Below are positions 924 to 19,107 of a stretch of DNA of 25,872 bases, piece after piece. Both the position numbers and the translations under genes were made by a program. The notes beneath the pieces are model-generated. The model searched no databases. It was not told the DNA's origin and saw only the letters and a program-made list of their open reading frames with translations. Position 1 is the first letter of the stretch. Each line of letters begins with the position of its first letter. The DNA lies in assembly GCA_020318295.1 (NCBI GenBank), contig GCA_020318295.1_4859.2; one strand, 5' to 3'. This DNA is from a phage.

Positions 924-3900
924 TTAGTTAGTTTCGAGTGGATCGTCTGGAATAGTAAACGTTATATCAAGTGAAGCTGTTGTGTGGTCGGGGATTGCCA
1001 AGTCGTGATAGATATCATGCCCTGCACCATGTTCTTTATAGAGGAGATACAAGCCGATTGCACGCATCGCTTCCCCGGTATAAAACCCAAAGGCTTGACC
1101 GTTATCCGTAGTAGGGTTTGCCCACGGAGACCAGGCACCGTTAATGGCTTTTCCTGGAATGTCTGTGACGGTGAAGTTGTCACCCATCTCTTTCATCCCC
1201 ATATCCATAATACGGCTCAACCCTTCCACTGTACAGCCAGCCATTGCTGCATAAGCGCTGCCTGCTATCCAGAGCGCACACATATGTGCTGTGAAATCGT
1301 TCTCTACCCACACCGGTTTATTTGGTGCCGTAGGGAATTCATTCGGCGTGTGGTTGTCAAAGCGGTCTAAGAACCCTACGAGCCACTTAGCCCAATTTTC
1401 AACGTACACTACTAGCTCAGGTGGAACCTCTTTACCACGCACAACTAATTCGTACCAACAACGCGCAGCGGCGTTATACGCGCGCGGCTGATAACCTGCC
1501 CACGGATGTCCATCGCCCCAATGGAACGTTGTCCACGTATCTGCCGGGCCGTAAGAGTAGTTATCCCAACGGTTCCAAATATACGCCGCACAACCTGGAC
1601 CTAACTCACCTATCTGCTTTTGGTAGTTGGTTTGTGAATCGTGCATAAACCGAATCTGATTTAAGAGCCAGTCTTTGTAGCGATCATCGGTGTGTATGGT
1701 GTACATAAACGGATACTGATAGCCAGGATACGGCATCCCGTGCCATGCACCTAGCTGATACGTTCCTTCCGAATAAATGTTCGAGAACGGTATCGTTCCT
1801 GGGCAATACGCGAGCAAGTCAAGACGGTAATCTTTTATCGTACAATCGCCCACTTTACCCGTAAATGCAGAACCTCCCCGAATTACAATACGGAACGTTA
1901 ATGTCCAGCCGTCGTCTGCATTAAACAGTGGCGGAACATCGTTTACGCAATACCAGCTAAAGTGCGCATTCTCCACAGCCGAATCGGGCAGTATGGTTAC
2001 CTGATCGATAGTTGTATAGTTTGGCGCAGCCGGTTTTGGTTCGACGTCGGTATCGTGGTCAGGTTGATAGCCCGAGAGTGTTGCGTCTTCAGGGCGAATA
2101 ATAACCTGTTTCCATTCCCCGTTAGTCGCGGGCAACATCCACCACCAACGCCACTTGTCGGTATCTTCGAAACGGAAGTTGAAATCAGCATCGGCACGAT
2201 AGACAATTGACTGTGGGGGTGCAACACCGGCATCGGTTAACCAGAAACCGATAATGAAACCCGCATCGTCGTTCGGGAATAACGCTTCTACGATTGTGCC
2301 TGAACGACCATCGTAAATGTTGTTCTCAAACTTCTCCTGCCATGTACACCCACCGTAGTCCGAACATGCTCGCGCATCGGCAATGATGTAATCTTCGCCG
2401 TTGGCCGGATTGGTCATTCTGGCCAGATGCCCTAAATCGATGTCATGCTGTTCTACTTCCATCGATGTTGATCCCGGAAGCGTACAGCCGTACCAGTTTA
2501 CTTCTTCAGTATCCGCTTTGACGGGGTTAATATCCACCATCACTTTACACGCAAGTGCATCACCGTTGTCGCAAACACCGCCATACGTCACACGTAACTT
2601 CGATTGACTGTTTATCCTGAAACGCACGGCTTGCTGTTCCATAAAGTTCTGCACAGCTTCCTCAGAACGGAACACAATATCACCATTTTCATCACGACTG
2701 TAAGCGACCTCAACGGTGCTGGGGTATTTATAGTCGTACGAGATACCATCTGTAAATGGTGTTTCGGCTAGCTTAGAACGTCGGAAAAACTTGTCCTTCG
2801 CATCGATATACGTGTATTCGTGCGCTGTATAGAACACAGAGTCTAGTGCGGCTTTATAGCGCGCTTCACCTGTGATACGCCAGAGCAGATAGCAGGCATC
2901 AATAAACCACACTTCCGCATCTGCCGCGTTACCCATCTGGTTAACAGACCCTTTTAACGGGGTATGAACCGGGCGGTTGTGCCACGGCTCATTGCGGTCA
3001 AACAAATACCCGCCGTGCTCTACAGGTACCTGGGAAGCGTAGTTAATCAAATATACACCGTTAATACTGGTGTCCTTTAATTGTACGGTTCCTTTCTGGG
3101 CATCAGGTAAACCGGATTCGATGACATCGCCGTCTTTAACCTTCTCACCCGTCCACACAACAAACCAGTCAGGTTCGTACCGCGGACCTTTCGAGGTAGA
3201 ACCGCCCCACATTGGTGTATATCCGGTTGGGTCGTTTAACATCCTGTTCCAGTCCACCCACGCTTTTACATCGTAAGGTTTCTCTGGATTGGTGATTAAG
3301 TAATCAGGGACTTTAGACCAGTCAATTAACCCGTTTTCCGATTCCTTAATTTTCTGTACGTCAGCATTAACCGCACCCCAGGTAGGATGGCCACGGTGCG
3401 CAGAAAAGAAATTGTTCAGATACTCACCAAAGAATGGTGCGCCTTGGGGTATCTGGCAACGCCCGTTCGTAAACGTTACCGGTACACACTTGTAACCACC
3501 GTGGGTTGGCTCGGTCGGATGCACTGGATAGTCTGCCAGCACCGGTTCTTTACCGTTAACTAGCCAGTTACAAATCCATCGTTGCGGTGAATCGGGAATG
3601 GCCTGACCTGCGTAATAGTAGGTAGCGTACGCTTCCCATGCATGAATCGCCGCATCTAACCACATCTGGTTTTTGGTAGCAATGTACATGTGACAGTAGC
3701 CAATAATCAGCAACGATTGACCTTCTGTGGTGGCGTCACCATTAGGTTGATACACTGCCATGGAGTCAGCAATGAAATGCCGGTTATTAGATAGCACCCC
3801 TTCTGGGTTAATCAGATAATGGTCATTGTGGGCGTCGTTAGTTAAGCCGGTGTTTCGACGAACAAAGTCCTGATGTCCGTAAGCCAGCGACATCGCGTAG

Positions 3901-3941
3901 TTCAGCGCATGTCGTTTAGCAGAGATTTTAAATTTGCGCAT
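924..3941 (-). CDS. Large Trp/Tyr/Gly-rich protein (1005 aa); putative tail fibre, tailspike or carbohydrate-active virion protein
   Basis: Uninterrupted 3 kb ORF, ATG at 3941 with AGGA upstream, 3-nt gap to the upstream gene. Function is inferred from composition and gene order only. Confidence 0.7.
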   Translation of the reverse strand: MRKFKISAKRHALNYAMSLAYGHQDFVRRNTGLTNDAHNDHYLINPEGVLSNNRHFIADSMAVYQPNGDATTEGQSLLIIGYCHMYIATKNQMWLDAAIHAWEAYATYYYAGQAIPDSPQRWICNWLVNGKEPVLADYPVHPTEPTHGGYKCVPVTFTNGRCQIPQGAPFFGEYLNNFFSAHRGHPTWGAVNADVQKIKESENGLIDWSKVPDYLITNPEKPYDVKAWVDWNRMLNDPTGYTPMWGGSTSKGPRYEPDWFVVWTGEKVKDGDVIESGLPDAQKGTVQLKDTSINGVYLINYASQVPVEHGGYLFDRNEPWHNRPVHTPLKGSVNQMGNAADAEVWFIDACYLLWRITGEARYKAALDSVFYTAHEYTYIDAKDKFFRRSKLAETPFTDGISYDYKYPSTVEVAYSRDENGDIVFRSEEAVQNFMEQQAVRFRINSQSKLRVTYGGVCDNGDALACKVMVDINPVKADTEEVNWYGCTLPGSTSMEVEQHDIDLGHLARMTNPANGEDYIIADARACSDYGGCTWQEKFENNIYDGRSGTIVEALFPNDDAGFIIGFWLTDAGVAPPQSIVYRADADFNFRFEDTDKWRWWWMLPATNGEWKQVIIRPEDATLSGYQPDHDTDVEPKPAAPNYTTIDQVTILPDSAVENAHFSWYCVNDVPPLFNADDGWTLTFRIVIRGGSAFTGKVGDCTIKDYRLDLLAYCPGTIPFSNIYSEGTYQLGAWHGMPYPGYQYPFMYTIHTDDRYKDWLLNQIRFMHDSQTNYQKQIGELGPGCAAYIWNRWDNYSYGPADTWTTFHWGDGHPWAGYQPRAYNAAARCWYELVVRGKEVPPELVVYVENWAKWLVGFLDRFDNHTPNEFPTAPNKPVWVENDFTAHMCALWIAGSAYAAMAGCTVEGLSRIMDMGMKEMGDNFTVTDIPGKAINGAWSPWANPTTDNGQAFGFYTGEAMRAIGLYLLYKEHGAGHDIYHDLAIPDHTTASLDITFTIPDDPLETN

Positions 3942-3944
3942 GGC

Positions 3945-4418
3945 CTAGTATCCTGTTCCGCAAATGGCCCCTTTCCAGGTTGTACCGCCATCCGTAGATG
4001 ACAAAGACAACACATCCTCGGCGTCTAGCGTGTACGATAACGGAGGTTCTGCACCGTTAGGCCATTTAACCGAAGTCGGCCAGGTGATTTTGTTTGCACC
4101 GGTACCCTGACGTAGCGTCAGTAATAACTCATATCGCGTACCAGGAACCGGGTCGGTAATAGGCGTGATAGAAAGCGCAGTGGTGGGGTCACCTAAACGG
4201 ATGATGAAGTCGTCCGCAACATTGGGATCTATTTCAACGATACCGTCAGCACCGGATAAGTTTTGGATAGGGTTTGCATCTGCCCCACCACCGCCGATTT
4301 CACTGAGAGGAAGTTTGTACTCCTTTTCATCAACGCTGATAAGCGCTACTGCGCTCGACTTATCGCCGTTGTAAGAATCGAGTTCATGCAAACGTTTCTT
4401 TTTGACTACAGTTGCCAT
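3945..4418 (-). CDS. Hypothetical protein (157 aa), possibly tail-fibre associated
   Basis: Start overlaps the upstream stop as TAATG at 4416-4420; Gly-rich GGGGADANP segment. Structural role is an inference. Confidence 0.55.
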   Translation of the reverse strand: MATVVKKKRLHELDSYNGDKSSAVALISVDEKEYKLPLSEIGGGGADANPIQNLSGADGIVEIDPNVADDFIIRLGDPTTALSITPITDPVPGTRYELLLTLRQGTGANKITWPTSVKWPNGAEPPLSYTLDAEDVLSLSSTDGGTTWKGAICGTGY

Positions 4419-4951
4419 TATGCATCGTCTCCGTAGGTTAACACTGCATCATCACCGATGCATAAAACAGTTTCTTCATCCAGACTTGCCACAGCTTCTT
4501 TTTCATTAAACGCCGTGAATGTAAAGGTAGCCGTCCAAGCCGGCGAATCGTCACTCATCGGTGCAATCAACGGCTCGTTTGTTGGTGTAATAACCCCTGT
4601 CGAGATGTCTTCACGTGACAAGTTTAAACCGCACAACTGGTTTACAACTGTCGCTAAATCGGCATAGGTGTCGCCGGGAGCTACAGTAACCAGTATCGGT
4701 CCTTGCGGGTCGATAATCTTATTAGCAGCTAGACGGTCGTAATAGACGGTAATCTTCTTACCGTTAGGTTTACGTGCTTTCGCAATGAACGCTTGCGAGG
4801 TACGGGCACTTTCAACACCTAAGTCGATAGGCCCTACCCCGCTTATCACAATCTCGTCAGGCGATAATGACAAGCCGTTATCGTGATTAATCAACGCCAC
4901 GACAAGCGCTTTCGACGAGAGTGTTAGGTCGGGCTGATAGCGGTCTGCCAT
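4418..4951 (-). CDS. Hypothetical protein (177 aa using ATG at 4951)
   Basis: ORF 4418..4990 trimmed to MADRYQPDL..., which has GGAGG 6 nt upstream; the longer N-terminus would run into the terminator A-tract. Confidence 0.55.
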   Translation of the reverse strand: MADRYQPDLTLSSKALVVALINHDNGLSLSPDEIVISGVGPIDLGVESARTSQAFIAKARKPNGKKITVYYDRLAANKIIDPQGPILVTVAPGDTYADLATVVNQLCGLNLSREDISTGVITPTNEPLIAPMSDDSPAWTATFTFTAFNEKEAVASLDEETVLCIGDDAVLTYGDDA

Positions 4952-5427: not shown

Positions 5428-5811
5428 TTACGATAACTCGCCCATGTAAATTACTTCATAACCGAACCACTCACCGATTTCAATAAGGTAAGAAACTAGC
5501 AAGTGGCGATGACAGAATTTCCCCGGTGGGCAATAGCACATTAGTACGACCTCGCCCTGGCGGAGAATCTCTATCAACTTATCAGTGTCTTCATCAAACA
5601 ACTGACTAAGTTTCTGCAGGTAGCGTTTGGTATACGCAGCTTCTGCGTCGGGGCCTTTGTCAGACTTCTTGTAGTCCATCAGAAAGTCCCAGTCGGGTGC
5701 CAAATATTTCAGCCCCGACTTAACCGTTATATCCAGCTTTGGCAAATTCCGTTTTTCAGCTATCCGCCACTTCGCCAGTTGGAGCGTCCACAGCTTTACT
5801 TGCTTTGGCAT
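5428..5811 (-). CDS. DUF488-family protein (about 127 aa)
   Basis: C-terminal VVLMCYCPPGKFCHRHLLVSYL resembles the conserved Cys...CHR segment of DUF488 as I remember it. Start is ambiguous (ATG 5811 or 5862); either overlaps the upstream gene in another frame. Confidence 0.55.
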   Translation of the reverse strand: MPKQVKLWTLQLAKWRIAEKRNLPKLDITVKSGLKYLAPDWDFLMDYKKSDKGPDAEAAYTKRYLQKLSQLFDEDTDKLIEILRQGEVVLMCYCPPGKFCHRHLLVSYLIEIGEWFGYEVIYMGELS

Positions 5812-6763
5812 TTTTCGCTCTCTCTTTTTCTTTCTCCTGAAGCGCTTTAAAATGCGGTGCATATTCGCACCACTCTTCTGCTGTAAATGACGTGATAAAC
5901 AGTCTTTCGGTATCTTCAGTTACCGTAAAGGTTGTGTGATTTCTTTTCGGGTCCTTAAAGTTAGCAAAAGTCGGTACGTCCAAACCCATAGCAGAAATAG
6001 CACTACCGAGAGCAGAACACCATACCCGTCTGTAAGCATCGTTAATTTTAATCTCCCATCCCACAGACGGTGTAATACCAAGACTACGATAATTCTGCGA
6101 CTTTGCCGACGGATGGGCATAAACGATGAGCATGTTATTCTCACGGTCTATCGCGAATTCGTAGTTGTTGTAGTTACTGACCTGCACCAATCTACGAATG
6201 TCTTCCGGCAACTCCTGCCACATTTCCAGTTTCTCTTTATCCCACGCAGGTGTTAGAAGCGGTGGAACGCGGCCGGCATGATCTTGGAAATACATCAGTT
6301 CGCTATAAAGGTTCTTTAAGCGAGCGTACTCGTCTAATGTCCAATCTCCCAGCTCTAGACTATTCTCCAACGCATCTAACTTATTCCAGCCAACAACTGC
6401 ATAGGCGTGGTGCTGTTTGCGTGTAATGTCGCACATCAGTTTAGCGAGGCCGTTAACAACATTGCCTTGCTGAACCAGAGGCGACCAGCCGTTAGCGTAG
6501 CCGGCGCTAACGACAGGCGGAAAGTTCTCTTCCCCGAGCACCGCCCATGTAACACGATCGGTTTGTGCGTGGTATCTGTCCATTAACCGTTCAACAATGG
6601 CCACACTACAAAGAATTTCCATGAAGTTCGCGTTACCTCCATTCCACATGGAGAAATATGCAGGACGGACATGTCGTGCTTCATTGGCCGGTGCTTTGCA
6701 CAACAGCTGATACATTATCCAGGTGGAATCCAACCCTGCTGAAAACGAAACGAGCTTCGTCAT
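5756..6763 (-). CDS. PP-loop (SGGxDS-type) ATP pyrophosphatase-like protein (335 aa)
   Basis: N-terminal LVSFSAGLDST resembles the PP-loop of adenine-nucleotide alpha-hydrolases (QueC/MnmA/TilS class). ATG at 6763 with GAGG upstream. Substrate unknown. Confidence 0.6.
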   Translation of the reverse strand: MTKLVSFSAGLDSTWIMYQLLCKAPANEARHVRPAYFSMWNGGNANFMEILCSVAIVERLMDRYHAQTDRVTWAVLGEENFPPVVSAGYANGWSPLVQQGNVVNGLAKLMCDITRKQHHAYAVVGWNKLDALENSLELGDWTLDEYARLKNLYSELMYFQDHAGRVPPLLTPAWDKEKLEMWQELPEDIRRLVQVSNYNNYEFAIDRENNMLIVYAHPSAKSQNYRSLGITPSVGWEIKINDAYRRVWCSALGSAISAMGLDVPTFANFKDPKRNHTTFTVTEDTERLFITSFTAEEWCEYAPHFKALQEKEKERAKNAKASKAVDAPTGEVADS

Positions 6764-6771
6764 CCTTTACC

Positions 6772-7104
6772 TCACTTATGTTTCTGTTTTTCTTCACGCA
6801 TCAACTTAGCGTTCAGGTCGACCATGTAACCCGGTTTTTCCATCACCTGCACTTCTTCCCAGTTGCTTCCCACCGCCATTTTGAGGGTTCCTTGACGTAC
6901 CGCGATTTCTTTTGCAGTGTCACGGCAGACCTCTAACGCTTCGTCCAAATCGTTAAAGGTTGTCTTCTGTGGTCCGTTAAAGGTTTTAGCGCATTCCAGG
7001 AATACACGTTCGTAAACATCCTGGTCGAGTAAGAGTGGTTTGTCCGCAGCGTGGACAACCATAGGCGCAACGAGTGCGCCTAACAGAACTAAAACTTTCT
7101 TCAT
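6772..7104 (-). CDS. Small secreted or periplasmic protein (110 aa) with N-terminal signal peptide
   Basis: MKKVLVLLGALVAPMVVHA-ADKP is a typical signal peptide with an AxA cleavage site; start overlaps the upstream stop as TAATG. Confidence 0.6.
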   Translation of the reverse strand: MKKVLVLLGALVAPMVVHAADKPLLLDQDVYERVFLECAKTFNGPQKTTFNDLDEALEVCRDTAKEIAVRQGTLKMAVGSNWEEVQVMEKPGYMVDLNAKLMREEKQKHK

Positions 7105-7586
7105 TATTTCACCATGTGTATAAGTTGATAACGTGGGGTTTCTTCTACCACAACATCAAAGGATGGAATACATGATATCTTTCCATTCAGGTCGAGATGT
7201 ATACGTGGTGAAATCATAATGGTTCCCGCACGCATCAGTTCAACCGCCTGGGCTTTGAGTGGGCCATGCGGAGTAAAATCTCCGCGAAGTTGAAAATGTC
7301 CTTCAACGATTCCGTAGCAAATATTTGACACGTACCCACAAACGCGATCAAGGTCGATGTCACGCACACGACGGTTGGCGTCTTCTAATTCCTTAAAAGA
7401 CCGGCACGGCTTAATAACCGGCGCATCGTATTCACAAAAGACGTGACCGCGGCGTAACGCCAGTGAGACAGCTTCATCCGGATGGTGCGGATCTTTGAAG
7501 TCCTCACAGGGTATTGAGAAAATTAAACCGCTGGCCGTCGCAACTGTTTGAGCAGGTATTTCCTTAACCTCAGTTTGTAGTTTCAT
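7104..7586 (-). CDS. Hypothetical protein (160 aa)
   Basis: ORF directly downstream of the HslU-like gene after an 80-nt gap; no recognisable motif and no HslV-like N-terminal Thr signature. Confidence 0.55.
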   Translation of the reverse strand: MKLQTEVKEIPAQTVATASGLIFSIPCEDFKDPHHPDEAVSLALRRGHVFCEYDAPVIKPCRSFKELEDANRRVRDIDLDRVCGYVSNICYGIVEGHFQLRGDFTPHGPLKAQAVELMRAGTIMISPRIHLDLNGKISCIPSFDVVVEETPRYQLIHMVK

Positions 7587-7666
7587 AAACTCGCTCGATG
7601 ATTAATGGGGTTAAAATCAAATCCATGTAACCTAGGGTCAATAACGCACATGCGGCGCTATTAGCA

Positions 7667-9427
7667 TTACGCGTTCTCTGTCCAAGCGTGACCACGCAGC
7701 GTTTCACCGCGTATGTCGTATTGCTTATATTTCGAAGAGTCGTAAGACGCAGGTAAGAAGATCTGATGAACAATATCCGCCAGTCGACGAGCGCCAAGGT
7801 TCTCTACAGCATTGGCTTCCATTGTTTTCTCAGCGATGAACGTATAGGTGTCCATGTCGTACTGCGTTTCCACCCCTTCGGTTTTCAACAACTTAATCAT
7901 GCCGTGGAACTCACTGTTATCCAACTTACAGATAGCAATCAGTGCCTCGGTATCCAGCGAAGACATTTTCGCTCTTAACGGAAAACGTCCCTGGAGTTCT
8001 GCCATGAGTTTAGAAACAGGCGCTTGAGCAAACGACCCAGCAGCGACAAAAAGCACATTGGTTGTGTCAACGCCATGATAAATACCCCCTTCAACCATTT
8101 TCAACAAGCTACGCTGCACACCACTACGGGATACACGTGCAGTGTGTTGCGTGTCAACCTCGATAAGTTTGTCAAACTCATCCAAGAACACCACCGCAAA
8201 GTTCTCAACGAAATCATGTCCATTACAGTTGGGTAGTTTCTTGAGGTCTTTGCGGCTGACTGTTTCTTTTTCTGGCACAACTGTTTCAGGTATCTCGTAA
8301 TGCCAAAGCCGTTCATCGGCGTATTTGGTAAATTCTGGAGAACCTTCGAACACGTCATCCCACCAACGACACCACTTCTCAGGATCTTCCAAACGAGACA
8401 ACATGCGAATAGTAAACGCTGCAGCGTCGATCGGGAGCCAATTAATGCCCGCCGGCTCGACGTCCTCGTCGTCGCCGTTAAACGTGTCGAACAAATCGTA
8501 GAAATCTGAGCCATCGGCACACGAGAGTGGCAGGTTATTTGACATCAGCGCTTGACCGGCATCAACGTATAAGTCAATCTGTTCGCCTAAAGCCATCAGC
8601 GACATAAACTCACCCATATACCCAATCGTGCCCGGTATATCACCATCCATTAACTTATCGACTTGACTTTCAAGTTCTTCACTATTCAACAGTTCAGAAA
8701 TTGACGAGACACCGAGCAGACTCCTTGCGATTTCCGAAATCTTATCTATCCATTCCTGCACAGTACGGCCACCGAGCGTAACAGAATAGATATCGAAGTC
8801 TTCGTAGGTTAAATTGTGTTGACGGCAATAGCCAACCATAAACGCGCGAAGACAATAGATGTCTTGGTATTCTTCGTACAACTCCTTCGGATCGAGTATA
8901 CCCTGACGCCGTAATAGTTCGGTGTGGTCACGTTTAGCCTGATACCGCAGCTGGCGCTCAGCTGCGCGCTCGTCTAGTTCGCGCTCAACTTCCTTACGGG
9001 ATTCACGCTCCCACTCTTCACGAGTAAGACGATTACCGTCTACTTCCGTCTCGACACGTCGTTTGGTACGCAGTTCGATATACCAGTCGGGCAATTCGAC
9101 AGAACGCGCTAAGTCGGCTAAGTCCTTGCCGATTGATGTAACTTCCCGGCCTACGTAGCCTGATTCTGTAAACGCGGTCATGTCGAGTTCCAGCACAGGT
9201 AAACCGAATTTAGTTTTCAGTACCCGCATCAACGCCGTTTTACCCGTGCCTGTTGGACCTTCTATTAAAAGGTTCTGTTTGTGGACCGACATACGGTCCA
9301 CTACGTTAAGTTTATTGGCACGGTATCGATTACGTAGCGCAATCGCCAGCATTTTCTTTGCCTGCGTTTGTCCATATACGTAACGATCGAATAGCGCCAC
9401 TATCTCAACCGGCGTGAGGTTTTCCAT
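7667..9427 (-). CDS. HslU-like AAA+ ATPase (ClpY-type unfoldase) with a greatly expanded insertion domain (586 aa)
   Basis: N-terminus TPVEIVALFDRYVYGQTQAKKMLAIALRNRYR and Walker A GPTGTGKT, TESGYVGREV, Walker B VVFLDEFDK, SRSGVQRSLLKMVEGG and sensor-2 ENLGARRL all follow the HslU pattern from memory. About 340 aa separate Walker A and B. Confidence 0.85.
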   Translation of the reverse strand: MENLTPVEIVALFDRYVYGQTQAKKMLAIALRNRYRANKLNVVDRMSVHKQNLLIEGPTGTGKTALMRVLKTKFGLPVLELDMTAFTESGYVGREVTSIGKDLADLARSVELPDWYIELRTKRRVETEVDGNRLTREEWERESRKEVERELDERAAERQLRYQAKRDHTELLRRQGILDPKELYEEYQDIYCLRAFMVGYCRQHNLTYEDFDIYSVTLGGRTVQEWIDKISEIARSLLGVSSISELLNSEELESQVDKLMDGDIPGTIGYMGEFMSLMALGEQIDLYVDAGQALMSNNLPLSCADGSDFYDLFDTFNGDDEDVEPAGINWLPIDAAAFTIRMLSRLEDPEKWCRWWDDVFEGSPEFTKYADERLWHYEIPETVVPEKETVSRKDLKKLPNCNGHDFVENFAVVFLDEFDKLIEVDTQHTARVSRSGVQRSLLKMVEGGIYHGVDTTNVLFVAAGSFAQAPVSKLMAELQGRFPLRAKMSSLDTEALIAICKLDNSEFHGMIKLLKTEGVETQYDMDTYTFIAEKTMEANAVENLGARRLADIVHQIFLPASYDSSKYKQYDIRGETLRGHAWTENA

Positions 9428-14850: not shown

Positions 14851-15669
14851 TTATAAGGTGCCGATTAGCTCCGTCACCGCTTTACGCTTATTCGCATCCG
14901 CAGACATATATCGACCTACTTGAACTTCGCGCCAAGTAAAGCCGTAATAAATATCGCGTGTGAGTAACGTATCTGCGTTTGACAGAACGACCTTATTGCC
15001 ATCGGCAGCTTGTTGTTTTAAAAGTTTCGCTAACTCGCGGTGGTCAGCTTGTGAAAATTCTTTGCTGTGATACTGCGCGTGTTTAGCCGTATCCGAAAGT
15101 GGGATGTAGGGCGGGTCGGCGTATATCACAGCGTTAGATGGGCACTTATTTAGGATGTCGCGGAAGTCCGCGCAGAGCAGCTCGACGTTGGTTTCCGAAC
15201 AACGTTTTGCCCACGCCAGAATTTCCTCTTCAGGGAAATAGACACCGTTCGGGTGTTGACCATAGGGCACGTTAAACCCACCCGACTGATTGTATCTGCA
15301 CAAACCATTGTAACCATGACGTGTAAGATACAGGAACATCGCGGCGCGCTGGAGATTAGGTTTCCCCGTGGTTGCTTCGCTGTTAAATCCCTCGCGTCGT
15401 TCCATGTAGAGACCGCGGTCCGTCCCATTTGCAAAGAGCGCCTTTGCTTCCAGAATCAGCGCTTCCGGACGATCGCGCGCCATGGTCAGTAACTCGATTA
15501 AGTCCGGGTTCGTGTCGCCGAGAATATAGTTCGGGTATTTAGTGTTTAAAAACACTGACCCTGCGCCCACAAAAGGTTCAACGAAATACTCAGCATCCGG
15601 AAACACCTGTAGCAGCTCGGGCAGTACACGACTCTTACCACCCATCCATTTTAAAATTGGTTTTATCAC
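14851..15669 (-). CDS. dam: DNA adenine methyltransferase (Dam-like, N6-adenine, GATC-type family)
   Basis: LKWMGGKSRVLPEL, FVEPFVGAGSVFLN (AdoMet-binding) and catalytic YADPPYIPLS (DPPY) match E. coli Dam from memory. Start is GTG at 15669, supported by the conserved LKW-GGK N-terminus. Confidence 0.9.
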   Translation of the reverse strand: MIKPILKWMGGKSRVLPELLQVFPDAEYFVEPFVGAGSVFLNTKYPNYILGDTNPDLIELLTMARDRPEALILEAKALFANGTDRGLYMERREGFNSEATTGKPNLQRAAMFLYLTRHGYNGLCRYNQSGGFNVPYGQHPNGVYFPEEEILAWAKRCSETNVELLCADFRDILNKCPSNAVIYADPPYIPLSDTAKHAQYHSKEFSQADHRELAKLLKQQAADGNKVVLSNADTLLTRDIYYGFTWREVQVGRYMSADANKRKAVTELIGTL

Positions 15670-15672
15670 CCG

Positions 15673-16674
15673 TTAACATCCTCTCATGCCAGATTGAAAC
15701 ATATCACTGATAGTCAGCCTGGTTGTAGTCTCCACCGGAATGCTAGGTTCTTCTTTCAGCACTCGATCGGCGCGGTTCCCATTCACCCGTTTCCAGCTAA
15801 TAAGTTCAGGATCGCGTTTCAACGTTAGTGTACGCAGTACCTGCTTGCAACGTAAGATGTTGCCGTACAGGTGATTTGCTGGATTATTATCAGCAGCTGT
15901 TTCAATATAGACTTGGTCGGAATGACGTTGTGCGAAATCGAATAGCGCGCCCATTAGCCGGCGGCCAATGCCACGTTTACGGTGTGTGGGTGCAACGGTT
16001 AAACCAGAAAGTTCAACGACGCCTGGTGTAACCAAGCGCATCTGGGCAATACCGACGATATCATGGCCGTCTCGCCAAATTGCAGTCTCCACATTAGCGT
16101 GCTGAATTCTTGCTATTACTGTTTCTGCTAACGGACCAATGTGTGTATAGTAGCCACGCATATCGTATTCTAGCTCTTCGCAAATTGCACCGCTAATCAA
16201 ATTCAGGATAACGTCTTTATCTTCCTTGGTAAGTTCTGCGTATGCATCACCAGAAATAATCTTGATTTCTGATGCGGTGATTACTTTGTCAAACAGTTTA
16301 GAATGACATGCCCAAACGATATCTGAAAGAACAAACCCTTTTTCGACCAGTTTTTGTTCAACATCGTCAGTAGGTGCTGGGCACGACATATATTCGAATC
16401 CGGTATGGTCGAGCACAAGGGCCAAACCAACTTTATCGAATGCCCCAGGTACAAACTCCTCAAAATAGTGACAGGTTAGTGTAGGGTCACCGTGTCGATA
16501 GGTGGCCACTAAATAACCCTCCCAGGTTTCTTTATTCTTCACCACGTAAACAGAATAAGTCTCGTCCTTTAGAAACTCTTTTAGGCGGCGTGCTCGTACA
16601 GTATCGCTGCCGACGTTATTTCGGAACTCGGCAGTGCGGATGCTGGTGCGAAACAATTTAGCCACAGTTTTCAT
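15673..16674 (-). CDS. Two-domain protein with C-terminal GNAT acetyltransferase domain (334 aa)
   Basis: Canonical acetyl-CoA motif LTVAPTHRKRGIGRRLMGALFDFAQ in the C-terminal half. The track ORF starts with TTG at 16797 and overlaps the upstream gene and terminator; ATG at 16674 (MKTVAKLF...) was chosen. Confidence 0.7.
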   Translation of the reverse strand: MKTVAKLFRTSIRTAEFRNNVGSDTVRARRLKEFLKDETYSVYVVKNKETWEGYLVATYRHGDPTLTCHYFEEFVPGAFDKVGLALVLDHTGFEYMSCPAPTDDVEQKLVEKGFVLSDIVWACHSKLFDKVITASEIKIISGDAYAELTKEDKDVILNLISGAICEELEYDMRGYYTHIGPLAETVIARIQHANVETAIWRDGHDIVGIAQMRLVTPGVVELSGLTVAPTHRKRGIGRRLMGALFDFAQRHSDQVYIETAADNNPANHLYGNILRCKQVLRTLTLKRDPELISWKRVNGNRADRVLKEEPSIPVETTTRLTISDMFQSGMRGC

Positions 16675-16730
16675 TGTAATGCCCTCAAAAGGTATTGCTG
16701 TCACAACATGAGGATAATGCGTAAAAAGAC

Positions 16731-16758
16731 AAAAAATTAAGGGGTCCGAAGACCCCTT
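16731..16758 (-). terminator. Intrinsic terminator
   Basis: Perfect stem aaggggtc/gacccctt with a 4-nt loop (TTCG on the minus strand), followed by TTTTTT. Confidence 0.75.
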
Positions 16759-16763
16759 AATGA

Positions 16764-17420
16764 TTACAGTTCCGGTTTGGAGACAAGCGTCGTCCAAGTT
16801 TCGGAATGTTTGACACTAACGTGTGCTAGGCGATTCACCATGAAGGCAAATTTGTCCATATGTTTCTGCACTTCGTTATCAGTCAGATTGCCAGCGATAA
16901 CTTTACCGTCTTTGGTCAGCACGATATAGCCGTGGTTGTTGTCTACCGTAGTGAACGCCACATCAATCGTAACCGGGTAAAGTTTCACCAGCGTCGGCAG
17001 AATGTGGCCAACACGATCGGCCATACCCGCAAGCTGGCCACAAAGGTCGGCTTTATCCTGCATGAACAAACGCAACATCGCTACTGCAAACACCGGATAG
17101 ATGTTTTCGATTTGCGTGTCGTAACGAGACAGGCCGATAACTTCATCACCGCGGGTTAGCACCATGTTGTTCAGATGCGCGCCTTTATAGATGGTAAAGC
17201 GTACGTCGCTACCAAGGTTAACCGAAACGATTTCCTGACCAAGGTCAATCGGAAATTCACGTTCGATGTGAATCGTTTTCAGACGCTCACTGATCGGTAC
17301 AATCACATCCGGCTTCGGAATGCTAGATGTACGCGTGGATTCAGTGGTACGCGTTTTTGTGGATTTAACCGCACTGCTTGCCATTGAATCTTTTGCTACA
17401 GTTTTAGGGGCCTTCGCCAT
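16764..17420 (-). CDS. Hypothetical protein (218 aa), basic Ser/Thr-rich N-terminus
   Basis: ATG at 17420 with AAGGAG 6 nt upstream. Confidence 0.6.
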   Translation of the reverse strand: MAKAPKTVAKDSMASSAVKSTKTRTTESTRTSSIPKPDVIVPISERLKTIHIEREFPIDLGQEIVSVNLGSDVRFTIYKGAHLNNMVLTRGDEVIGLSRYDTQIENIYPVFAVAMLRLFMQDKADLCGQLAGMADRVGHILPTLVKLYPVTIDVAFTTVDNNHGYIVLTKDGKVIAGNLTDNEVQKHMDKFAFMVNRLAHVSVKHSETWTTLVSKPEL

Positions 17421-18372: not shown

Positions 18373-18996
18373 CTAACCTGCCAGAATACGTTCAACGATA
18401 CGCGCGGCTTGTAACGCTATATCGTCGTCAGCCGTAACACGCATCAGCGGGAACTTATCGCCGCCATCTGTGGTGATGTGGAAAGCAAAACGGTAGTGGT
18501 CGCGTAACGCGTCCCAATCAGTCTGTGAGCGCAGATACTTCGCTGTCAGTACCTCATCATCCCAGTTCTTGCCCTGGGCCTCTGCGCGCTTCTTAAAGCG
18601 TTCTGTGGCGGTTTCGTAGGATACATCGGTTGCCACGTAAAGTTTCGGTGCGTTAATGTGGTCTAATACCCGTGAACGGAAAACTTCCCCTTTACCATCG
18701 ACGCCCTGGTAGACAATAGTCGATTGACAAAAACGGTCAAAAATAACGACATCGTGCTCTGGTACAACGAAATCCATCGTGTATTGGAAATCCAGACACA
18801 TCGCTTTAGCAATGCGTTCGTTAGAAGCGTGCTGGATAACCAGAGAACGTGCACTAATACCGGCTTCAGTGGTATTCGTCGGGTGATTGACGATGATGAC
18901 ATTAACGCCAGCGGAGCGCAACATCGCTTGAATCATTTTCGCGAGTGTTGATTTGCCAGAAAAGTCCGGACCATCCAGCGCCACTGAGTTTAACAT
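18373..18996 (-). CDS. Thymidylate-kinase-like P-loop nucleotide kinase (207 aa)
   Basis: VALDGPDFSGKST P-loop and FDRFCQSTIVYQG (the DR-x and STxxYQG region of dTMP kinases) near the N-terminus. Start moved from 19098 to ATG 18996, because the longer N-terminus would be encoded by the terminator A-tract. Confidence 0.65.
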   Translation of the reverse strand: MLNSVALDGPDFSGKSTLAKMIQAMLRSAGVNVIIVNHPTNTTEAGISARSLVIQHASNERIAKAMCLDFQYTMDFVVPEHDVVIFDRFCQSTIVYQGVDGKGEVFRSRVLDHINAPKLYVATDVSYETATERFKKRAEAQGKNWDDEVLTAKYLRSQTDWDALRDHYRFAFHITTDGGDKFPLMRVTADDDIALQAARIVERILAG

Positions 18997-19058
18997 TTTA
19001 TTCTTCCCCAAAAGTTTAATTAATTGTAGTGGTGTCACAATATAGCGACCAAACGTAA

Positions 19059-19094
19059 AGAAAAAAATAAAACAGGCACCCCGAAGGATGCCTG
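19059..19094 (-). terminator. Intrinsic terminator
   Basis: Stem caggca/tgcctg around a loop containing CCTTCGG on the minus strand, followed by TTTTATTTTTTTC. Confidence 0.6.
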
Positions 19095-19107
19095 ACATTA
19101 GATGTTA

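Follow-up and report, generated by a model that had tools for sequence, protein, structure and literature searches.

Out-of-frame overlap between a predicted QueC-like PP-loop gene and a DUF488-N3a gene in jumbo Salmonella phages

Introduction

All characterised PP-loop enzymes adenylate a carbonyl or carboxyl oxygen, and the PP-loop proteins described so far include QueC (7-cyano-7-deazaguanine synthase), Cap9 (a QueC-like protein of type IV cyclic oligonucleotide-based antiphage signalling systems, CBASS), and ThiI, TtuA/NcsA, MnmA and LarE, which transfer sulfur by way of a cysteine persulfide or an iron-sulfur (Fe-S) cluster. DUF488-N3a proteins are reportedly cysteine-dependent enzymes of the rhodanese-phosphatase superfamily (Burroughs and Aravind 2023). 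The literature we searched contains no functional study of DUF488-N3a, and no solved structure for the family is detectable by sequence. Here we analyse a locus in which genes of these two kinds overlap, at positions 5428 to 6763 of a 25,872-nucleotide (nt) stretch of phage DNA (contig GCA_020318295.1_4859.2 of assembly GCA_020318295.1; hereafter the window). The upstream gene, g1, is predicted to encode a QueC-like PP-loop ATPase, and the downstream gene, g2, a DUF488-N3a protein. An original prediction, made from the sequence and its open reading frames (ORFs), had offered three explanations for the overlap: a genuine overlap, a fusion gene broken by a frameshift or sequencing error, or programmed frameshifting. 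We find it probable that g1 and g2 are two separately translated genes that share an inherited out-of-frame overlap.

Two genes and their overlap

By megablast, the window region groups with Seoulvirus, jumbo phages of Salmonella: of 37 matching records, 33 span 80% or more of the query, with 95–99% identity. Over 13 kb the window is 95.6% identical to phage SPN3US. The two genes appear in the GenBank record of SPN3US as SPN3US_0119 and SPN3US_0120, i.e. gp119 and gp120. RefSeq names the first “hypothetical protein” and the second “DUF488 family protein”, with the 56-nt overlap already annotated, and neither product is mentioned in the SPN3US essential-gene and virion-proteome papers that we searched. 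Both ORFs of the original prediction, and the open overlapping frames between them, lie on the minus strand where they had been placed. The features of the overlap are as follows.

5756..6763, minus strand: g1, encoding 335 amino acids (aa), stop codon included in the coordinates; predicted QueC-like PP-loop ATPase, homologue of SPN3US gp119, phrog_8825.
5428..5862, minus strand: ORF in the g2 frame, 144 aa, containing CYCPPGKFCHRH.
5428..5811, minus strand: g2, encoding a 127-aa DUF488-N3a protein, homologue of SPN3US gp120; start ATG at 5811, stop codon included.
5756..5811, minus strand: dual-coding overlap of 56 nt, specifying g1 residues 317–335 and stop, and g2 residues 1–19 (MPKQVKLWTLQLAKWRIAE) in the +1 frame.
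5818..5824, minus strand: purine-rich Shine-Dalgarno-like sequence GAGAGAG, 6 nt upstream of the g2 ATG and within the g1 EKER codons.
5812..5862, minus strand: K/R-rich +1-frame reading (MHRILKRFRRKKKRERK) of the K/E-rich helix of g1, not coding for g2 given the stop in SPLA3 and the unconserved ATG at 5862.

The g1 protein starts with MTKLVSFSAGLDST and ends with QEKEKERAKNAKASKAVDAPTGEVADS before its stop codon, and its start methionine is invariant across the family alignments. The frame of g2 is +1 relative to that of g1, the third (−1) frame being full of stops, and the overlap measures 56 nt from the g2 ATG at 5811 or 107 nt from the ATG at 5862. Same-strand overlaps of at least 50 nt are uncommon, with about 5 in the roughly 264 gene junctions of SPN3US RefSeq, some of which may be mis-called starts.

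More than 30 Seoulvirus genomes, each sequenced independently, keep the arrangement, as do three other genera. It spans 56 nt in Seoulvirus and likewise in SPAsTU and pEa_SNUABM_29 (g1 68% and 64% identical), at least 53 nt in Machinavirus (at least 53 nt in ChrisDB, at least 59 nt in Machina), and 176 nt in Erskinevirus, where the real g2 start in phiEaH2 and Asesino reads MAKKVKIW or MVKKVKIW and the annotated starts are truncated. In every overlapping genome g2 lies at +1 of g1, and the length of the overlap varies from 56 to 176 nt. A genuine overlap is the right choice among the three explanations first offered; it is ordinary genome compaction, already present in the RefSeq annotation.

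Outside these genera the two genes part company. They lie 2.5 kb apart in Wellingtonvirus (Kwan), with an HslU-like ATPase gene between them, and about 66 and 128 kb separate the DUF488 gene from the QueC-like PP-loop gene in PS119XW and Noxifer, respectively. Three metagenomic phages, along with KTN4 (phiKZ), Noxifer and Goslar, have unrelated genes beside the DUF488 gene; EL, AerS_266, Miami, PA1C and Noxifer carry their g1-family or QueC-like genes in other genomic contexts; and phiKZ, Goslar and PCH45 have DUF488-N3a with no g1 homologue detected by tblastn. The idea that homologues might always occur as separate, non-overlapping genes, which the original prediction had set against its own reading, is therefore correct in part: the genes are apart in Wellingtonvirus, and in most other nucleus-forming phages the DUF488 gene adjoins unrelated genes, but Seoulvirus, Machinavirus and Erskinevirus keep the overlap. 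Genome comparison thus identifies the overlap as an inherited feature of one clade, being neither a broken fusion nor evidence of an obligatory partnership.

The start of g2 is supported by its family. In an alignment of 20 diverse sequences, DUF488-N3a proteins begin a few residues before a conserved WTxQLAKWR, of which Q11, W15 and R16 are nearly invariant, and the N-terminus given by the ATG at 5811 (MPKQVKLWTLQLAKWR) fits this family N-terminus; the conservation of WTxQLAKWR across the family validates that start. SPLA3, about 97% identical, has a stop in the g2 frame two codons upstream of the g2 ATG, and the ATG at 5862 is absent from SPAsTU and pEa_SNUABM_29. Since the upstream frame is closed in SPLA3 and the ATG at 5862 is unconserved, the basic N-terminal extension that the original prediction had assigned to g2 (KRFRRKKKRERK) is a frame artefact, namely the +1 reading of the purine-rich K/E codons of g1. 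The GAGAGAG sequence probably functions as the g2 ribosome-binding site, and SPAsTU and pEa_SNUABM_29 have AAGGAG in the codons equivalent to those of g1 EKER.

The C-terminal tail of g1, which varies in length between genera, can be read as a shadow of g2. Its GEVA (GGC GAA GTG GCG) is the out-of-frame reading of (CT)G GCG AAG TGG CG(G), the codons for g2 L-A-K-W-R; EKER (GAA AAG GAG CG) is a reading of the g2 Shine-Dalgarno-like sequence; and the g1 stop TGA is embedded in the Ala-Glu codons (GCT GAA) of g2. Substitutions in the tail (G/C/S/R, E/K and V/M) are exactly those permitted by synonymous changes in the g2 L/I/M-A-K-W-R codons, and the g1 tail of Kwan, which does not overlap the DUF488 gene, is without GEVA; on these two grounds we attribute the tail motifs to g2. 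Conversely, the GCG-AAG pair is invariant in nine of nine overlapping genomes and variable (GCT, GCA or GCC; AAA or AAG) in genomes where no g1-family gene overlaps, in three of which a GCT-AAR pair would make a stop in the g1 frame. Inside the overlap, synonymous codons of g2 are identical in 62% of cases (82/133), versus 43% (349/809) outside, a comparison drawn from few independent lineages and from non-independent genome pairs, because of which it is suggestive only. Together these patterns suggest a dual constraint on the overlapping codons. The locus is a clean example of apparent amino-acid conservation (EKER, GEVA) that is merely the shadow of a neighbour's ribosome-binding site and N-terminus.

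In the mechanism that we consider most economical, g2 would initiate independently at the ATG at 5811, on a ribosome-binding site traversed by the ribosomes that translate g1. The low-complexity tail of g1 runs through the putative g2 ribosome-binding site and the first 19 g2 codons before its stop. Expression of g2 is then probably coupled, to some extent, to translation of g1, because ribosomes translating g1 would pass over the g2 initiation site.

Related observations concern the ends of these genes in other phages. In CR5 (locus 2995–4387) and in a metagenomic contig (4472–5366), genes unrelated to g1 run 35 and 44 nt, respectively, into the 5′ end of DUF488-N3a; these are CR5_128 (346 aa) and a 190-aa ORF, in the same relative frame as g1. 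We considered CR5_128 as a divergent g1 and rejected it (hhalign probability 0.07%). The start of the DUF488-N3a gene thus seems to be recurrently overprinted, and the WTxQLAKWR codons can hold a stop in the overlapping frame solely at the Ala-Lys junction. In Wellingtonvirus Kwan (locus 1037–2459), g1 (gp146) is annotated as overlapping the unrelated gp147 by 65 nt, so that its tail again runs into its neighbour, the start of gp147 being annotation-based. DUF488 genes are annotated inconsistently in public records: their starts have been called 29–45 codons late in phiEaH2 (locus 3573–3821), Asesino (1888–2184) and pEa_SNUABM_42 (1933–2184), with loss of the conserved N-terminus. In LR535903–LR535917 (Salmonella phages SPFM1, 5–10, 12, 14, 15 and 20) the region is matched as 30–34 short pieces with fragmented g1 and g2 proteins, which suggests indel-rich assemblies rather than real gene disruption.

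Protein families of g1 and g2

The original prediction had recognised a PP-loop-like motif at the N-terminus of g1. Motif, predicted fold and profile search all support that assignment and place the protein in a QueC-like subfamily, with the following architecture.

6722..6748, minus strand: PP-loop (SGGxDS-type) motif SFSAGLDST, g1 residues 6–14, aligning with the PP-loops of TilS, Cap9 and QueC.
6194..6763, minus strand: N-terminal PP-loop ATP-pyrophosphatase domain, about residues 1–190, with conserved QQ, GWxKxDxxE and TPAWDKxKxEMW motifs.
5786..6193, minus strand: C-terminal domain, about residues 191–326, with beta-strands and then a long terminal helix.

Residues G10, L11, D12, S13 and T14 of the motif are invariant among close relatives; the S-A-G-L-D-S-T of g1 represents one G-to-A change, close relatives having TGGLDST, and the consensus of the 46-member family is SGGLDST within AFSGGLDSTY, with G10 and S13 invariant. 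The AlphaFold2 model of g1 (predicted local distance difference test, pLDDT, 82; predicted template modelling score, pTM, 0.86; residues 327–335 below pLDDT 50) has a Rossmann-like alpha/beta fold, which as modelled is superimposable on solved PP-loop enzymes. Its best structural matches include ThiI, TtuA, NcsA and LarE, and no structural relative of the C-terminal domain was found among solved structures. A profile of the wide g1 family searched against the PDB matched Cap9 (E = 5.3e-5), QueC (0.003) and TilS (0.003), and 13 of the 13 matches at E < 1 are PP-loop proteins. The TPAWDKxKxEMW motif of the family aligns with QueC TPLMWLNKAETW (TPLxxxxKxExW), in sub-threshold second domains only, and the matches of distant family members, also sub-threshold, are nearly all to PP-loop families (QueC, TilS, LarE, Dph6 and ArgG).

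The family is small and viral: g1 has 17 relatives among 5.8 billion protein clusters, and a collection of 1.84 billion proteins yielded 46 representatives, those with names all being phage proteins, mostly of jumbo phages, and the remainder metagenomic. In PHROGs, g1 belongs only to phrog_8825, of unknown function, and it has zero matches in PADLOC. No cysteine is invariant or nearly so among the 46 members, the QueC-like protein of PA1C retains CGKCKPC, and in g1 we found neither a THUMP nor any other RNA-binding domain. On sequence grounds g1 is a QueC-like PP-loop protein and not a QueC, because the zinc-cysteine cluster is missing from the whole family and partners of the QueC pathway are unannotated in SPN3US. 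The g1 protein has lost the QueC zinc-cysteine cluster, and it carries the C-terminal domain for which we found no structural match.

Adenylation is the most likely chemistry of g1, because every characterised PP-loop enzyme performs it. Using ATP, the protein would adenylate the carbonyl or carboxyl oxygen of a probably nucleobase-like substrate, after which a nucleophile would replace the oxygen, and the QueC-like signature suggests a purine-like or carboxylated substrate. Modification of nucleotides or nucleic acids, which the original prediction had suggested, would be a possible role.

The proposal that g2 is a DUF488 protein is supported by two Pfam families above threshold: PF22751 (DUF488-N3a, “active” subclade; 46.9 bits against a cut-off of 27, E = 4e-12) and PF04343 (28.9 bits against a cut-off of 22.2, E = 2e-6). 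Its candidate catalytic site is a single loop.

5506..5538, minus strand: putative active-site loop CYCPPGKFCHR of g2 (C92, C94, C100, H101 and R102), residues invariant in 20 diverse DUF488-N3a sequences.

From the family assignment, this CxC..CHR loop is probably catalytic, and the Pfam name together with the clade suggests that g2 transfers phosphate or thiol groups by a cysteine-dependent mechanism, acting on sugars, nucleotides or the ends of nucleic acids. A tblastn search recovers the gene from about 290 phage records, among them phiKZ-like phages, PhiPA3, 201phi2-1, Phabio, Noxifer, Goslar, PCH45, Ea35-70 and CR5; judged from these sequences, DUF488-N3a occurs widely among nucleus-forming jumbo phages, in most cases encoded at a distance from any g1 homologue. 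The Kwan (locus 4565–4915) and Wellington copies are labelled “putative GIY-YIG catalytic domain protein”. The g2 protein (5428..5811) also has weak PADLOC matches to uncharacterised “phage defence candidate” components, PDC-M45C (E = 3e-5) and PDC-M19A (E = 9e-4), and DUF488-like proteins therefore occur in candidate bacterial defence loci as well.

Alternative explanations

Several observations weigh against two separately translated genes of these families. In Machinavirus (Machina and pEa_SNUABM_42; locus 1750–1830), ATG, GTG and TTG are all missing immediately before the first beta-strand of g2 (KLKVRTVQIAKWR), and the candidate starts are a GTG about 21 codons upstream with a Shine-Dalgarno-like AAGGTGG, a CTG, and the annotated GTG, which truncates the strand; lacking a canonical nearby start, the genus offers a less clear case of independent initiation of g2. 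Between 5740 and 5880, a region that takes in the start of g2 and the stop of g1, RNA structure is not significant (z = −1.65, 13 of 200 shuffles as stable), giving no support for a structured coupling element. The single g1 sequence has zero above-threshold matches in Pfam and NCBIfam, because of which its PP-loop assignment rests on fold, motif and a profile match at E = 5e-5. To these may be added the non-independent genome pairs behind the codon comparison, and the context of the locus in the window (a protease paralogue, the HslU-like ATPase and tail genes), which offers no pathway clue.

The alternatives concern either the joint function of the two genes or the way in which they are translated. 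The first is compatible with the same gene anatomy and proposes that g1 and g2 are partners in a two-step modification pathway, in which g1 would adenylate the carbonyl or carboxyl group of a base (in DNA, in tRNA or in a nucleotide), g2 would deliver or process the incoming group, for instance by carrying a persulfide in the manner of the ThiI rhodanese domain, or by acting on a phosphate end, and the overlap would fix their stoichiometry. Such a partnership is consistent with adjacency and overlap in at least three genera, between which g1 identity has fallen to about 32–35%, with the contrasting cysteine content of the two proteins (none conserved in g1, three invariant in g2), and with the sulfur-transferring enzymes among the best structural matches of g1. 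Other members of the g1 family also adjoin nucleotide or nucleic-acid genes: the EL member has thymidylate kinase as a neighbour, and that of AerS_266 has DNA ligase and RNase HI. However, the adjacency is confined to one related phage group with conserved gene order, and may therefore reflect simple inheritance. The genes stand apart in Wellingtonvirus, PS119XW and Noxifer at the distances given above; the regions around the EL and AerS_266 homologues of g1 contain no DUF488 gene; phiKZ, Goslar and PCH45 have DUF488-N3a and no g1 homologue that tblastn detects; and in CR5 and a metagenomic phage unrelated genes fill the upstream overlapping position. In addition, the RNA-binding domains sought in g1, THUMP included, were not found, and no modified base is reported for SPN3US in the literature searched. 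A ThiI-like division of labour is attractive but is weakened by this loose phyletic and positional linkage, and we regard the partnership as unlikely. A more specific proposal, to which we attach somewhat lower odds still, is that g1 and g2 are the halves of an undescribed base- or end-modifying system belonging to nucleus-forming jumbo phages. In it g1, derived from QueC by loss of the zinc site and gain of a new domain for substrate binding, would be the activating enzyme for a carbonyl or carboxyl group of DNA, tRNA or a nucleotide; the transfer (for instance a thiolation or amidation) would be completed by DUF488-N3a, and the overlap would enforce co-expression.

That g1 is a true QueC feeding 7-deazaguanine modification of DNA is very improbable. 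Cap9 and QueC are the best profile matches, the sub-threshold TPLxxxxKxExW alignment points the same way, and relatives in JGI, AerS_266, PA1C and PS119XW are labelled QueC, QueC-like or queuosine biosynthesis protein. Yet g1 has no PF06508 match at E ≤ 1 and no TIGR00364 match, for which distant family members score 16–17 bits against a cut-off of 150; the zinc-binding cysteine cluster (CxxCxxC type) kept by the PA1C protein is missing from the whole g1 family; and the additional C-terminal domain, of about 135 residues, is not part of QueC. Nor are FolE, QueD, QueE, DpdA or TGT annotated in SPN3US RefSeq or present in the window, a comparison at the level of annotation in which host enzymes could complement the missing steps. 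The radical-SAM genes of SPN3US resemble those of SPASM peptide maturases, and the gene annotated there as “transglycosylase” encodes an SLT lytic transglycosylase.

We give equally little credence to programmed +1 (or −2) ribosomal frameshifting late in g1, which would yield a g1-g2 fusion beside or instead of free g2. Several genomes have the g2 frame open for 28–66 codons ahead of the g2 start, Machinavirus has no canonical start directly before the first beta-strand of g2, and the +1 offset is constant in every overlapping genome, all of which a frameshift would accommodate. However, we found no fused g1-DUF488 homologue among the 17 relatives or the 46 representatives of the g1 family, and no DUF488 domain in its two longest members, P0025 (470 aa) and P0026 (454 aa), in P0060 (438 aa) or in the others of the ten members scanned. 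Positions 5750–5930 contain no X XXY YYZ heptamer, no homopolymer of six or more and no prfB- or Ty-like +1 motif (CUU-UGA, CUU-AGG type); a −1 slippery heptamer would in any case be irrelevant, since g2 is in the +1 frame and a −1 shift cannot reach it. For the programmed frameshifting raised by the original prediction we thus found neither a signal nor a fused homologue. Moreover, SPLA3 closes the g2 frame two codons ahead of the ATG, a start codon and Shine-Dalgarno-like sequence precede g2 in Seoulvirus, an ATG stands at the same position in Erskinevirus, RNA structure is not significant, and the two genes work apart in Wellingtonvirus and other phages.

The remaining suggestion of the original prediction, a single PP-loop-DUF488 gene split by sequencing error or a recent frameshift mutation, has as its sole support that both frames are open across 5756–5862 in the window, and has a negligible chance of being correct: a sequencing artefact is ruled out by the recurrence of the identical arrangement in the independent Seoulvirus genomes (more than 30) and the three other genera, and these comparative data, with protein identities of 32–68% between genera, an overlap of 56–176 nt at constant frame offset, complete and family-typical termini in both g1 and g2, and no fused relative, refute it for practical purposes.

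Neighbouring genes

Several further genes of the window, and two of SPN3US beyond it, complete the description of the region.

7667..9427, minus strand: HslU-like AAA+ ATPase gene, 586 aa, PF07724/PF00004, phrog_4339.
7104..7586 and 6772..7104, minus strand: “head maturation protease” gene beside g1, homologue of SPN3US gp117 and a diverged paralogue of the true prohead protease gp245.
14851..15669, minus strand: Dam-type N6-adenine DNA methyltransferase (PF02086, E = 1e-53).
15673..16797, minus strand: 374-aa protein with a C-terminal GNAT acetyltransferase domain.
18373..19098, minus strand: thymidylate kinase.

The HslU-like gene marks an insertion/deletion difference, as positions 7648–9389 of the window have no counterpart in SPN3US NC_027402, where there is only a 70-aa ORF. 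The gene is present in SPLA3, SPAsTU, ChrisDB, CR5 and Kwan, and SPN3US separately encodes an HslV-family peptidase. For the protease paralogue, Ali et al. (2017, PMC5694885) noted that the combined length of gp117 and gp118 matches that of gp245. Outside the window, SPN3US NC_027402 carries two adjacent radical-SAM genes at 140024–142139, unusual cargo for a jumbo phage; the best matches of the SPASM peptide-maturase-like one are to CXXX-repeat and PapB families, below cut-off.

Comparison with known systems

What is new at this locus is the identity of g1, as a QueC-derived PP-loop clade without the zinc site and with a C-terminal domain matching no solved structure. Its family has so far been listed as “hypothetical” or loosely as “QueC”, falls below Pfam and NCBIfam thresholds and has no functional label in PHROGs. 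The amber-mutant system of SPN3US makes both genes testable, and could give DUF488 a first function and show whether these phages modify a nucleobase or process the ends of nucleic acids.

Compared with QueC and with Cap9 of type IV CBASS, g1 differs in having no zinc-cysteine cluster, an extra C-terminal domain, sub-threshold QueC scores and no annotated deazaguanine partners. It differs from the sulfur-transferring enzymes ThiI, TtuA/NcsA, MnmA and LarE in lacking conserved cysteines or Fe-S ligands and in having no THUMP domain that we could find, and the locus as a whole differs from a ThiI-type pair in that g2 is a DUF488 protein rather than a canonical rhodanese and that g1 and g2 are not obligatorily linked. 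The g2 protein is a typical member of the DUF488-N3a family, sharing its Pfam scores, CxC..CHR loop and N-terminus, and differs only in the double reading of its first 19 codons, which g1 uses too. In this last respect the locus resembles phage overprinting with an internal ribosome-binding site, since the 3′ end of g1 covers the Shine-Dalgarno-like sequence, start and first codons of g2, the arrangement is conserved and synonymous variation is reduced. It departs from the usual overlaps of 1, 4 or 8 nt in its extent, which ranges from 56 to 176 nt between genera around a fixed AKWR-coding part.

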